Part shown: piece after piece, positions 30,357 to 51,161 of the stretch
How positions within the stretch are numbered: the stretch's first letter is position 1
Layout of the letters: each line of letters begins with the position of its first letter
From: Candidatus Dadabacteria bacterium
Lineage (GTDB): Bacteria; Desulfobacterota_D; UBA1144; Nemesobacterales; CSP1-2
Assembly (NCBI GenBank): GCA_963805855.1
Contig: CAWDVW010000005.1
Coordinates: 704,001-768,000 of the forward strand
Direction of reading: 5' to 3'
DNA: 64,000 bases
Made by a program: the position numbers and the translations under genes
The notes under the pieces: model-generated
What the model saw: only the letters and a program-made list of their open reading frames with translations
What the model was told of the DNA's origin: nothing
Database searches by the model: none

Positions 30357-30510
30357 TGTTCAAAGATTAAATACTGCCTCAGATTATAAACAGCTATTAG
30401 AAATATTCAAAACTATCCGGAAGTATCATGATCTTAGTGAATCGTCGGAACCTTATTGCAATTTCGGTGTAGCAACTTTGCTAATTACTTTCATATCTTA
30501 TTATTGATTT

Positions 30511-30574
30511 AACCTGAGGAGGTTCCCATGGAACGGAAACCCTAGCCATCCCCCCCTGGCTGGGTACGGTCCCA
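30511..30574 (+). ncRNA. candidate structured RNA with C-rich loop, antisense to the pil operon
   Basis: AACCU/AGGUU hairpin; CCUAGCCA-UCCCCCCC-UGGCUGGG 8-bp stem whose U-G pair favours the + strand. Confidence 0.45.
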
Positions 30575-30588
30575 CAAATAAAGGAAGG

Positions 30589-30632
30589 AAAAAAAATAAT
30601 TGAAGGGTGGAGCTGAACAGGTCCACCCTTCA
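30589..30632 (-). terminator. intrinsic terminator of pilA
   Basis: TGAAGGGTGGA/TCCACCCTTCA 11-bp stem followed by a U-rich tract on the minus strand, 11 nt after the pilin stop. Confidence 0.85.
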
Positions 30633-30643
30633 TCTAATTAGCT

Positions 30644-31339
30644 TTAATCACATGCCCCCGAAGAAACGCCCCCCTGACTGCCATCGCGTGAAGTTTCAAA
30701 ATCTCCTGGAGCTGCCGAGGCTTGGGTAGACGTTGTACACCTTATCACGCCATCTCCAAAAACCCCGAAATCCCTTCTCCCGTTCTTCTGTACTGAAGTA
30801 GGTGAGGCTTCCCAGCCAAAATCCGCCTCCAGAATTGCGTCACTACCTGTCCTTACCCAGTTCGCCGTATCAAGATTATCGTCAGTATCTTCAGTCCAAC
30901 CTACGCAATAACCTGCTTTCGAATCAGCGCAGACAGCGGTAGCAGCCGCCGTTCCATCCGCCGCTGCTCGTGCTCCCACAAAACTATTGTCAACGAGGGC
31001 ATCCTGTTCATTACCAGCGCACGCAGCAGCAGCCAAGCCTGTCCCGTCGTCAGGGCACCGTAGAGAACCATCACCACCCACAGGGTCTTGACCGATTAAA
31101 TCTGTGTAATCCCTCTGGCCATTATTGTCGGCGTCCTGCTCGAAAAACTCGCCCTCGGCATCCCTGAGGGTCTGCATAGCCTTTCTGGCATTCGCCTCGT
31201 TTGCCGAAATCCTCGCCTTAATAAGGTTCGGTATGGCTATGGCAAGGAGAATACCGATTATCGCCGCTACGATCAACAGCTCGATAATGGTATATCCCTT
31301 TTCACCTCGCCCTCTTCCCATAAACTTAAATCCCATCAT
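30644..31339 (-). CDS. type IV major pilin-like protein
   Basis: class III signal RGEKG|YTIIELLIVAAIIGILLAIAIP with E5; SD AGGAGG; own promoter and terminator. Confidence 0.9.
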   Translation of the reverse strand: MMGFKFMGRGRGEKGYTIIELLIVAAIIGILLAIAIPNLIKARISANEANARKAMQTLRDAEGEFFEQDADNNGQRDYTDLIGQDPVGGDGSLRCPDDGTGLAAAACAGNEQDALVDNSFVGARAAADGTAAATAVCADSKAGYCVGWTEDTDDNLDTANWVRTGSDAILEADFGWEASPTSVQKNGRRDFGVFGDGVIRCTTSTQASAAPGDFETSRDGSQGGVSSGACD

Positions 31340-31499
31340 CTCTACCTCCTAAAAAATTTAATTTAAAATCTAAGGCTTACCGCTCAATACATCCAAATTG
31401 GCAAAAGAATTCCTTATATATTATGCCCACTCCCAGTTCTTTACTATGAGTTTATGAATTCATGGATTCATTTACTCTTTGTGTTTTTAACCAGATTTG

Positions 31500-31529
31500 A
31501 TTATATATCAGTCGAGAAATATAAGTCAA
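31500..31529 (-). promoter_or_regulatory. near-consensus sigma70 promoter for the pilin gene
   Basis: TTGACT-N18-TATAAT about 160 nt upstream of the start codon. Confidence 0.65.
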
Positions 31530-31650
31530 GCCTTTTTTTTTCAACGTATTCAAGAACCTACAATAAAATTCGACCTCGATCGCTATCCGTTACTATTGAG
31601 AATAACTATCACTCCCGATTAGAAAGGTATTTTCTTTAATATCTTGTTCC

Positions 31651-31733
31651 AAAAAAAATGCCCAGAGAATCGGTGGCGAGATCCTCTGGGCCAATGGCAA
31701 AAGCGGAGGATGGCAACTGAATCTTCACTATTA
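31651..31733 (-). ncRNA. candidate about 83-nt sRNA with anti-SD seed and intrinsic terminator
   Basis: extended -10 TG-A-TACTAT at 31748-31740; single-stranded UUGCCAUCCUCC; 12-bp stem with a G-U pair + A-U8. Confidence 0.65.
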
Positions 31734-32117
31734 GAAACTATAGTATCACCCCAAAATTAAATGAAAATTAATTTAATGTTAGGTAATTGTTAAGTTTGCT
31801 TAACCTGAGTAATCCATCCTCGTATTTCAAGACGAGTAACGTCGGAAGGAATTCGGTCAATTAAATCCCGATAATTCCATCGATTAATGACCGGCTGTGG
31901 TACGCATACGCTATTAAACTATCTCATTAACTTCTGAAAACTTAATAAGTAAGGCTAAATACGATATCTATATTGTGTGCATATGCGAAGTAATTTGTTG
32001 ACTTATTGTCCGAAATGCTTATATTTATGGTTAGTAATGATAAAGATCAATACGGAGAAATTAAGGGTTAGCCAGAAGAAATTAAATTGTTAGGAAGCAG
32101 CCCGAGAACTGATAGCG

Positions 32118-32552
32118 ATGAATATGAATAAGATTCAAGATATATACGATGATAATTTAAAATTTATGAGATTAGTCCTAAACTCCACCTACGATGTGAT
32201 GGGGAAAGGGCAAGTTCTCTTGATTAACCTTTTAAAACCAGCAAAACCCTCCACAAAGGTTGTGAGAAGGGACAACGGAGAAGAACCGGTCGAGGGTATT
32301 CAGTCAAAAGGGGATCGATTTCTTTCCGAGCTATATGCTTTGAGTAAAGCTGATCAGAATCAGGGGCTCAATATGTATGAAATAGGGGAAGGCATTGGTT
32401 TTGACGAACTTGAAACTGAGGAAATAGTGAATAATCTTTCAAGAGCAGAGTTGATAAAACGAGATAAATCCTCAGAGGATGTCTTTCTAACACCCTATGG
32501 AATCATGATAAATAATAGAGATATAATCGTCGGATACGCTCCCGTACATTAA
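32118..32552 (+). CDS. hypothetical protein with C-terminal winged-helix-like domain
   Basis: MYEIGEGIGF..IVNNLSRAELIK..VFLTPYG pattern. Confidence 0.6.
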   Translation: MNMNKIQDIYDDNLKFMRLVLNSTYDVMGKGQVLLINLLKPAKPSTKVVRRDNGEEPVEGIQSKGDRFLSELYALSKADQNQGLNMYEIGEGIGFDELETEEIVNNLSRAELIKRDKSSEDVFLTPYGIMINNRDIIVGYAPVH

Positions 32553-32568
32553 TACCCAAGGTTAAAAT

Positions 32569-33591
32569 TCAAAATGAATTAAAAACCAATTCCTTTACCT
32601 CATCTGTTTCAATTGAAAGATCCATACGTATATTTTCATCCAATCCCCTTACCCATAATGCGATTTTACGATATACATCTACCCTTTGAAACTTCAGGTA
32701 TCTATACTTGCCATCGACACCCGGGAATAACTCTGCAGTTACCGTAGGGCTATCTGGAAAACGCCTTCTTATTAAATCGATCAGCAATTTATGGAGTTTG
32801 ATAGTTCCAAGCGAAATATAATCAATTCTTCCGGGATCAAGTTTAACCAATATCTCTTCGACCATACCGCGGTAATCCTCTTCCCATCCTTCATATATTA
32901 TTATGGGGTCTAATCTTACACCGACCTCATAACCCGCATTCTGGCATCTTCTCGCCGCATCCAGCCTTTCCCTGAGCGAAGGAGTTGTATGCTCTATGGC
33001 ATTCACAACCCTTTCGGGACTTAGCGTCCACGATGGAATCATATTTTTTGGATGGTATTTCAATAATAGAAGGTTCTGGACATTTGTACTCTTGGTTCGA
33101 AATTCAATCACACCATTTTTGTATTTCGAAAAAAGGTCTGAGATTCTCAGTGAAAAATCCGTTAGCGGATCAAAAGCGAGCGCATCACAAACTTCGCCGA
33201 CGTGGAAGTAAGGACGGGGATGACTTTTTAAAATTTCCTCCATCTTTAAGAGAACATCATCCCTATTTACAAAAATTACCGGCACTTTGGTTTGGAAATA
33301 ATACTGCAGGTAACAATATTCGCAATCATATTTACAATCTATCTCATGAAATAGGTAGTACTGGCCACTTTCCATTCTTCCTATGTTCTTAAGAACTTCT
33401 CCCTTTTTCTCGGCTAAAGCCAATGAATTTTTATCCTCGATAGCCCGTATGGGAAAAGGTTTCCCCTCTCCAATACCTTTATAATTATCCACAAACTCTA
33501 CCGGCACGAAAGGCAGCCTCGAGATTATCTTCTTTGTAAGGGGATGATCCTTTATGTGTCTCTCAATGTATAATCTATTAGGCGTTTCCAT
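32569..33591 (-). CDS. radical SAM protein, spore photoproduct lyase-like family
   Basis: CKYDCEYCYLQ (CxxxCxxC), EFRTKS, E..TPSL.ERL.AA, DPII, DGKYRY. Confidence 0.85.
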   Translation of the reverse strand: METPNRLYIERHIKDHPLTKKIISRLPFVPVEFVDNYKGIGEGKPFPIRAIEDKNSLALAEKKGEVLKNIGRMESGQYYLFHEIDCKYDCEYCYLQYYFQTKVPVIFVNRDDVLLKMEEILKSHPRPYFHVGEVCDALAFDPLTDFSLRISDLFSKYKNGVIEFRTKSTNVQNLLLLKYHPKNMIPSWTLSPERVVNAIEHTTPSLRERLDAARRCQNAGYEVGVRLDPIIIYEGWEEDYRGMVEEILVKLDPGRIDYISLGTIKLHKLLIDLIRRRFPDSPTVTAELFPGVDGKYRYLKFQRVDVYRKIALWVRGLDENIRMDLSIETDEVKELVFNSF

Positions 33592-42260: not shown

Positions 42261-42336
42261 TGGCGGGCGATGGGGGATTCGAACCCCCGACCTCTGGCTT
42301 CGGAGGCCAGTACTCTATCCGCTGAGCTAATCGCCC
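42261..42336 (-). tRNA. tRNA-Arg(CCG)
   Basis: 76 nt; GGGCGAU/AUCGCCC acceptor, anticodon arm CUGGC-CUCCGAA-GCCAG, GGUUCGAAUCC, encoded CCA. Confidence 0.97.
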
Positions 42337-50871: not shown

Positions 50872-50882
50872 GAGATTGGAGG

Positions 50883-51161
50883 ATGAGTAAAGAAAGGGTC
50901 ACTATCATAGTGCAGGGGAGAGTTCAGGGTGTATTCTATAGAGCAAGGGCTAAAGAAAAAGCAATAGAGCTTGAGCTTAATGGATGGGTAAAGAACAGGA
51001 TGGACGGTACTGTTGAAATCGTAGCGGAAGGTAACAAAGAAGACCTGGAAAGATTGGTGGATTGGAGCAAGTATGGACCTAAGCATGCACATGTGACAAA
51101 AATCGAAGTGAAATGGCAGCCATTTGTGGGTGAATTCAGTGATTTCGCGGTAAAATATTAA
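50883..51161 (+). CDS. acyP: acylphosphatase
   Basis: GRVQGVFYR, GWVKN..DG.VE, GP..A.V. Confidence 0.95.
   Translation: MSKERVTIIVQGRVQGVFYRARAKEKAIELELNGWVKNRMDGTVEIVAEGNKEDLERLVDWSKYGPKHAHVTKIEVKWQPFVGEFSDFAVKY

Follow-up and report, generated by a model that had tools for sequence, protein, structure and literature searches.

The question raised by this locus is whether the space upstream of a type IV pilin-like gene holds a small RNA (sRNA) gene in its own right, or only a leader of that gene, the end of some longer transcript, or an ordinary terminator. The locus belongs to a stretch of 64,000 nucleotides (nt), which we call the window and whose positions serve as coordinates throughout; G000, from an uncultured bacterium of the sulfate-reducer type, is the genome of the window. 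Our answer is that the minus strand carries, upstream of the pilin gene, a predicted gene for a short non-coding RNA, self-contained in having both a promoter and a terminator of its own, and that the designation of this element as a new sRNA gene, as a prediction from sequence, is supported by comparison with relatives. As to its role, we consider it roughly an even call that the product is a lineage-restricted, CU-rich sRNA which, made from an independent unit, would act in trans against Shine-Dalgarno (SD) sequences, by analogy with (and not by homology to) the LhrC and RsaE RNAs. The element consists of the following parts.

31651..31732, minus strand: predicted sRNA of about 82 nt, its 5' end inferred 7-8 nt past the -10 box, its 3' end within the U-run.
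31740..31748, minus strand: putative extended -10 promoter element, TGATACTAT, invariant in 4/4 copies.
31694..31716, minus strand: single-stranded conserved core, UUGCCAUCCUCCGCUUUUGCCAU, containing a CCUCC stretch that resembles an anti-SD sequence (31709-31705).
31660..31691, minus strand: predicted intrinsic terminator hairpin of 12 base pairs (bp) with a C-rich loop of 8 nt (31672-31679).
31651..31658, minus strand: U8 tail of the terminator, U-rich in all four copies.

Between the -10 box and the core region lie some 18 nt of A/U-rich sequence, after which the minus strand reads UUGCCAU-CCUCC-GC-UUUUGCCAU-UG at 31716-31692. The hairpin that follows has the arms GCCCAGAGGAUC and GAUUCUCUGGGC and the loop UCGCCACC; its stem contains seven G-C pairs and one G-U pair, and A plus U8 follow at 31659-31651. 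This is a G+C-rich stem-loop with a U-run directly 3' on the transcribed strand, as in an intrinsic terminator, and termination is predicted here. The original prediction had described the extended -10, the hairpin with its G-U pair, the A+U8 and the CCUCC, and all of them are present on the minus strand. The box is putatively a promoter of the TGnTAnnnT type; a sigma-54 promoter (TGGCAC-N5-TTGC), looked for by eye in the sequence of the region, was not found.

The hairpin is the sole terminator-like site in 30400-32700, but shuffled versions of this region yield 2.0 +/- 1.4 sites, so that one per region is not unusual as a count. The fold of the 88-nt sequence has an energy of -24.5 kcal/mol (z = -2.48; 1 of 200 shuffles folds equally well). 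Its centroid holds the hairpin only and leaves the core unpaired, and the minimum free energy (MFE) structure pairs just 2 bp there. The opposite strand does about equally well (-24.6, z = -2.17); because both strands fold similarly, the orientation is taken from the U-run and the G-U pairs and not from the energy.

Taken by themselves, the statistics of this window would not set the element apart from chance; its conservation in relatives does. When 41 genomes (G000 plus 40 relatives) were searched at the DNA level, the intergenic region was matched in G001 and G002, the two other genomes of the genus. Within the genus this region as a whole is 76-80% identical, and across the RNA the G001 and G002 copies show 93% mean column identity to the copy of the window; three-way identity is 0.75-1.0 over 31757-31660 and 0.3-0.4 immediately past the U-run and just outside. 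A covariance model made from the three same-genus copies (R1) matched a further copy in a second genus of the same family (G007, contig C11) with 35 bits, and the model made from all four sequences (R2) matches it with 78.9 bits. The gene order around that copy is the same as in the window, namely a gene resembling the spore photoproduct lyase (SPL) gene, a homologue of a 144-amino-acid (aa) protein that we call p144, the sRNA, the pilin gene and an ABC (ATP-binding cassette) transporter. There are thus four distinct copies in two genera, and the element is single-copy in G000.

Across the genera TGATACTAT is invariant though both its flanks differ, and its distance to the core is kept at 25-26 nt in all four copies. 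The first ~18 nt of the predicted RNA vary between the genera, while CC[A/U]UCCUC and UGCCA are retained in 4/4 copies, and the hairpin loop is C-rich in every case, with CACC at its end. In the stem, 47 of the 48 cells are paired over the four copies, the remaining one being a G.A mismatch; two pairs have changed on both sides (G-C to A-U, and A-U to C-G) and three on one side, and sliding the 3' stem partners by 1-3 columns lowers the pairing to 21-54%. RNAalifold, run on the copies, predicts only the terminator hairpin and leaves the core unpaired. The invariant -10, the compensatory changes in the hairpin and the varying downstream context argue for a discrete conserved unit, running from promoter to terminator and non-coding; that it is more than the leader of the pilin gene, as had been claimed, is supported on these grounds.

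The claim that the element holds no open reading frame (ORF) needs a nuance. A frame of 30 codons does begin at a GTG (31728) within the sRNA; what stands is that this frame is not conserved, the GTG being TTA in two relatives and an indel shifting the frame. Small ORFs on either strand were considered and rejected as not conserved, since the relatives carry indels and lose the start codon.

The relation to the pilin gene can be judged from the following features.

30644..31339, minus strand: type IV pilin-like gene of 231 aa, the downstream neighbour (Pfam N_methyl, E = 1.3e-6).
31500..31529, minus strand: predicted promoter of the pilin gene itself, TTGACT-18-TATAAT, with 11/12 consensus matches, between the hairpin and the pilin gene.

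The pilin gene had been said to have its own promoter downstream of the element, and this holds well: besides the site in the window (31529-31500), equivalent TTGACA...TATAAT sites exist in G001 and on contig C119 of G002. Beyond the pilin gene, further downstream, are ABC-transporter genes. The context differs in G002, and in an identical metagenome contig of 25 kb: the sRNA is followed, after ~160 nt, by a gene for a 145-aa protein (with an N-terminus that looks by eye like a signal peptide) and then by an Lhr-like helicase gene, likewise named by eye. The pilin gene of G002 is on another contig, C119, behind an HTH-like (helix-turn-helix) gene, XRE-type by eye, which has its own terminator. 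We observed a rearrangement within the genus here (L010 / L055 versus L053), the breakpoint of G002 relative to G001 being at the -35 box of the pilin promoter.

A further context comes from sequencing runs. In two DNA runs (X1 and X2) a contig matches the window only at 31654-31715, that is, over the 62 nt from the UGCCAUCCUCC core to the U-run, with four differences; beyond these 62 nt, on either side, the contig has no relation to the window, and X1 and X2 share these flanks. The core is therefore present in at least one further genomic context. These contigs also point to another organism or strain, in which the core has other surroundings.

The distribution of the element is narrow. In a model search over the order, 9 of 101 genomes had a match at E <= 0.05, and four of these are the element. 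The matches in G003 (with the three-copy model) and G012 were rejected as lying inside ORFs, and that in G029 as aligning to the terminator half only; further matches, in G037, G046 and G027, score 21.9-22.6 bits. The G012 match (contig C26, L066:1501-1561, 22.7 bits) is antisense to a Walker-A stretch (GKAGVGKT) and reads CUUGCCAACCCCUGCUUUUCCCAUU; the ORF is, by eye, a DnaC/IstB-like ATPase gene, and an antisense Walker-A coding stretch of this kind mimics the sRNA core and is a source of false positives in searches. An R1 search without filters at 14 further p144 loci gave nothing convincing (top score 18 bits), and a scan for hairpins upstream of p144 at 12 loci found the element only at the three known ones (window, G002 and G007:C11). 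Exact-pattern scans gave one locus in a metagenome collection and two in a species-genome collection, all three with elements identical to known copies; of the two species-genome records, one bears the label Desulfobacterota and the other Thermodesulfobacteriota. Most of the 2-kb stretch is contained in DNA runs described as salt marsh metagenome, and the run that covers it best may come from the source sample. As judged from these matches, the sRNA is probably lineage-specific and confined to two genera of an uncultured family.

Expression data bear little on the matter. Both RNA runs among the 24 runs listed, and two DNA runs, were compared with the locus. One metatranscriptome (X23, depth 2) has contigs on the pilin ORF at 30788-30938 and 30944-31094, for which carry-over of DNA is possible, and the other (X24, depth 17.8) has a contig on p144 at 32175-32362. 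The RNA contigs lie off 31651-31748; as assembled contigs with low cover of this organism, they are uninformative either way on the sRNA.

What might such an RNA do? According to the mechanism that we propose, the extended -10 promoter would start an independent small transcription unit, and the 12-bp intrinsic terminator with its U8 tail would end it, giving a non-coding RNA of ~82 nt. This RNA would be laid out as a variable stretch of ~18 nt, a conserved unstructured C/U-rich stretch and a hairpin with a C-rich loop. Its UCCUC(C), and perhaps its C-rich loop too, would pair with the purine-rich SD regions of one or more mRNAs, and this pairing in trans would block ribosome binding, presumably with no involvement of Hfq. 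Action in trans through the CCUCC seed is plausible by analogy with the RNAs discussed below. The 3' end of the 16S ribosomal RNA of G000 carries CCUCC, so that SDs of the GGAGG type are the expected partners and an unpaired UCCUC(C) mimics the anti-SD. Neither an Hfq gene nor a CsrA gene (PF02599) was found in G000, a 93.84%-complete genome, and in both cases control genomes gave matches. In a scan for duplexes with 3094 translation start regions, obtained by crude ORF calling and with nine mononucleotide shuffles of the core as control, the real core does somewhat better than all nine shuffles: its energies are -37.2 at the 10th rank, -32.4 at the 50th and -18.45 on average, where shuffled cores reach at best -34.9, -31.5 and -18.02.

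The individual targets that had been put forward fare poorly. The SD of the pilin gene (AGGAGG) was named as a complement, but the pairing extends over 5 nt only (GGAGG:CCUCC), because the sRNA reads CCUCCG. The pilin 5' untranslated region (5'UTR) was rejected as a target, its duplex with the 5' part of the sRNA being no better than shuffles in any of the four genomes (146, 89, 45 and 140 of 200 shuffles, respectively, are at least as good); UUUUGCCAAUUUGG, in the same 5'UTR, was rejected as a shared motif, being present in the window and on G002:C119 and absent from G001 and G007. The other proposed complement, the 8-nt GGAGGAUG (50878-50885) at the start of an acylphosphatase-like ORF (acyP), is at chance level, with two occurrences in the window where 2.46 are expected. 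The idea of an anti-start-codon element, in which UUGCCAU would complement AUGGCAA and which has many matches at ATG GCA AA starts, was rejected since GCCAU becomes GCCUU or GCCAC within the genus. Three copies of UYGCCAY are indeed there (UUGCCAU at 31716-31710 and 31700-31694, UCGCCAC at 31679-31673) and form a local cluster within 44 nt, TYGCCAY occurring 33 times in the window against 26.7 expected; they are not a conserved feature, for none of the three relatives retains the loop copy, and two of them have a changed first copy. The GCCA triplet and the targets proposed within the window are not supported and should be dropped.

Several observations weigh against an independent anti-SD sRNA acting in trans, and they should be considered together. 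The transcript and its 5' and 3' ends are predicted from sequence alone; TGATACTAT has no recognisable -35 box, and a scan for consensus promoters did not list it. The covariation is statistically weak, 25-31 of 500 column shuffles reaching the observed values, because there are four sequences, three of them near-identical and one from a diverged lineage. The CCUCC pentamer itself is not fully kept, being CCUCG in G001 and CCUCU in G007. The excess in the duplex scan is unspecific and names no target, since a generic CCUCC scores well against any SD, and the best single energy (-41.5) is equalled by a shuffle. Over the 6.2 Mb of the genome, the longest contiguous complements elsewhere are of 14 nt, which is about chance by a rough estimate (one of them, at C2:715418, lies within an ORF and was rejected as a target), and a pattern for targets of the conserved core has 41 matches with no convincing start among them, 7 being near possible starts and mostly gene-internal. 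Finally, the element adjoins p144 throughout, and usually the pilin gene too, which would fit a local role in cis.

A local role is the substance of one alternative, a cis-acting leader or attenuator: transcripts from the promoter would stop at the hairpin or read into the downstream gene, the short RNA would be a by-product, and UCCUC would pair with GAGGA within the 5' arm of the hairpin and so be a weak antiterminator. In the window as in G002, the unit is co-oriented with the gene that follows it ~310 nt further on, a conserved block 3' of the terminator travels with downstream promoters, and when the nascent RNA is folded up to the 3' arm, UCCUC pairs with GAGGA in three of the four copies (-8.6, -5.6 and -11.3 kcal/mol). 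The alternative helix, however, has 5-6 bp against the 12 bp of the terminator, and the full-length MFE structure is the terminator in 4/4 copies. Moreover, the downstream gene is not the same in all relatives, the pilin gene has a near-consensus promoter past the terminator, no riboswitch or leader family matches, and the 62-nt core is seen with unrelated downstream sequence in the DNA contigs. We keep an attenuator at low probability because its helix does form in three of the four nascent folds whereas the terminator wins at full length; it is unlikely, but it deserves to be kept in mind. A hairpin that merely ends a longer transcript from upstream (for instance from the SPL-like gene, antisense through p144), the -10-like box being no functional promoter, seems to us quite improbable. 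Such a transcript could reach the hairpin, as the SPL-like gene and p144 are convergent, 16 nt apart and with no terminator-like site between them; but it requires a 3' extension of ~900 nt antisense to an expressed gene, and it leaves aside both the fixed distance of an invariant TGATACTAT to the core in two genera with divergent flanks and the core that is preceded by unrelated sequence in other contigs.

The original prediction had also offered a protein-sponging RNA, and a sponge or decoy in which the (U)UGCCA(U) and C-rich elements bind an RNA-binding protein, instead of being pairing seeds, would account for the three clustered TYGCCAY copies, for the UGCCA kept at the second site in 4/4 copies, and for the fact that no specific mRNA target emerged from the scans. 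Against it, the first motif is GCCUU in G001 and G002, the loop copy has gone from all three relatives, the similar UUUUGCCAAUUUGG of the pilin 5'UTR is missing in G001 and in G007, we know of no candidate binding protein, and no gene for CsrA or Hfq was found in G000. A sponge of the CsrA type in particular is unlikely, considering the missing CsrA gene and loops devoid of GGA, and we would be surprised if the wider idea proved right. We think it still harder to see here an ordinary terminator or insulator whose conservation would only reflect a short evolutionary distance. The element is narrowly distributed (4/101 genomes of the order), and three of its copies come from one genus in which, as said above, the whole intergenic region is similar; but conservation peaks sharply on the unit as compared with its flanks, and the unit persists in a second genus, whose flanks cannot be aligned, as well as through a rearrangement of its surroundings.

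Returning to an independent sRNA, one may ask what would control it. Two features upstream are relevant.

32118..32552, plus strand: p144, a family-restricted protein of 144 aa encoded by the divergent gene; candidate regulator with a MarR-like winged-helix fold in its model.
31778..31793, minus strand: candidate site for a regulator, TTAAC-N6-CTAAC, made up of two half-sites of the TTAA type with a spacing of 11 nt.

There is no Pfam match to p144. Its model has a pLDDT (the predicted local distance difference test) of 74.1 overall and above 85 for residues 61-130, with a long N-terminal helix and a C-terminal half that resembles the MarR winged helix. The top Foldseek matches are repressors of the MarR family (MepR, E = 6.2e-3, probability 1.00, template modelling score ~0.41 over ~76 columns), with no match at E <= 0.001; in a profile search of the PDB, the only MarR-type row is YusO (which we take to be a MarR family member) at E = 0.44, and there is no significant sequence match. 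Three-way identity is 95% in the block that holds the motif. The distance from its proximal half-site to the -10 is 29 nt in the window, G001 and G007; in G002 a deletion of 11 bp has shortened it to 18 nt, with the helical phase kept. As the mark of a genome-wide regulon the motif was rejected, since the genome shows no enrichment of it, with 8 sites where 10.6 are expected. Transcription of the sRNA may be set by a factor binding TTAA-N7-YTAA, and p144, on the strength of its modelled fold, is one candidate. The gene adjoins the sRNA in the window, G002 and G007:C11. It is found in 14 of the 101 genomes of the order (G000 counted). Of the 14 other genomes in the family, 11 have it and 3 have the sRNA; p144, far more widespread, is therefore not dedicated to the sRNA.

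Two more features complete the neighbourhood.

32569..33591, minus strand: SPL-like radical SAM (S-adenosylmethionine) gene.
31600..31628, minus strand: conserved block after the terminator, TTTCTAATCGGGAGTGATAGTTATTCT, with a three-way identity of 80%, the sequence directly preceding it having 30-40%.

The gap mentioned above, where the SPL-like gene and p144 converge, is at 32553-32568. As no terminator-like site lies in it, each transcript would run antisense into the other gene unless otherwise stopped. The block TTTCTAATCGGGAGTGATAGTTATTCT occurs twice in G002, 3' of the sRNA and 5' of the pilin promoter (L055:1618-1650 and L053:2360-2400), and a block of ~100 nt matching 31649-31549 of the window is found at both places. 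It shares a 13-nt repeat (D4) with the 5' end of the sRNA, and we note that it resembles the sRNA promoter and 5' end (GTGATA...TTCTAAT). The block might be a duplicated promoter that has degenerated, or else a joint left by recombination.

The four-sequence model also matched a second locus of the genome, at G000:C7:198725-198794 (minus strand; L067:1501-1570), with 37.9 bits, and counterparts of it at G001:C46:417-486 (L068:417-486, 32.5 bits) and G007:C53:1547-1614 (L069:1501-1568, 25.9 bits). In each of these loci a hairpin is preceded by C/U-rich sequence (CUUCCUUCUCACCCCACC, for example), and the stem of the hairpin, CCCAGAGG / CCUCUGGG, is nearly identical to that of the first element. 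About 130 nt are conserved in G000 and G001, with a tRNA gene after them, and conservation is weaker in G007. No Rfam family matches this candidate. Upstream of it is a CTTAAC-N5-CTTAAC motif akin to that of the first element. Homology of the candidate with the first element is plausible. One could go further and imagine at least two sibling CU-rich sRNAs under a shared TTAA-N7-YTAA operator, forming an anti-SD circuit of translational control, independent of Hfq and CsrA, in an uncultured Desulfobacterota family, an independently arisen Gram-negative counterpart of LhrC/RsaE that is possibly linked to genes of the cell surface (pilin); we mention this scenario for completeness and regard it as doubtful.

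If the sRNA is real, a conserved and bounded sRNA in a genome in which Hfq and CsrA were not detected offers a handle on post-transcriptional control in this lineage. As a candidate, it is in any case well suited to annotation and to the building of a new model for an RNA family. Its weight should be kept modest, as it is one among many lineage-specific sRNA candidates.

It remains to compare the element with known families and systems. The 4227 models of Rfam 15 were searched at gathering thresholds over the whole window and at E <= 10 over 31300-32200. The first search found only a tRNA at 42264-42336; the second gave NmsRb with 18.1 bits (against a threshold of 52), RalA with 16 (against 170) and snoR113 with 14.6 (against 47). 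The best near-miss, NmsRb (RF02877, E = 4.3), is aligned over the 5' region, the terminator hairpin and a U-tail of similar length; this match is chance-level and driven by the terminator. A sponge like CsrB or RsmZ is not recognised here, the only GGA being within the stem and PF02599 being absent from what was found in G000. Nor does the element look like a riboswitch or attenuator: there is no cis-regulatory match in Rfam, the rival helix is short (5-6 bp), and the downstream gene differs in G002. A limited literature search gave no paper on such a C-rich anti-SD RNA in Desulfobacterota, and we know of no regulatory RNA for the uncultured members of this group.

In its arrangement the locus recalls the divergent pairs of regulator and sRNA genes known in Enterobacteria (oxyR-oxyS, gcvA-gcvB and sgrR-sgrS). 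As in these, the sRNA is divergent from a small gene, p144, which by its model would be of the DNA-binding type, and a conserved motif lies upstream; unlike in these, the intergenic distance is ~370 nt and p144 is not dedicated to the sRNA.

In its proposed action the RNA comes closest to LhrC of Listeria monocytogenes, which binds an SD region through CU-rich sites located in a loop, in a stretch that is single-stranded and in the loop of its terminator (PMC4132741). The same source names RsaE, RNAIII, SprD and FsrA as RNAs that use UCCC motifs (PMC4132741). Compared with LhrC as described there, the present element is likewise predicted to be a short RNA with an intrinsic terminator, possibly with siblings; its single-stranded stretch and its terminator loop hold C/U-rich sites that could pair with G-rich SD regions. 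The differences are equally clear, since no sequence or structure match to LhrC appears at the Rfam gathering thresholds or at E <= 10, there is no 5' stem-loop A here, the motif is UCCUC(C) and not UCCC (a literal UCCC exists in the loop of G002 only), and the host is of an uncultured Desulfobacterota/Thermodesulfobacteriota lineage and not a Firmicute. SD blocking of the RsaE/RoxS type works largely without Hfq. From RsaE/RoxS the element differs in having no homology to it (no Rfam match), in having one hairpin only and in its remote host; what it would share with RsaE/RoxS and the other UCCC-motif sRNAs of low-GC Gram-positives is the blocking of SDs by unpaired C-rich motifs, and, if this proposal is true, it would be a further case of C-rich anti-SD riboregulation that has arisen outside Firmicutes.

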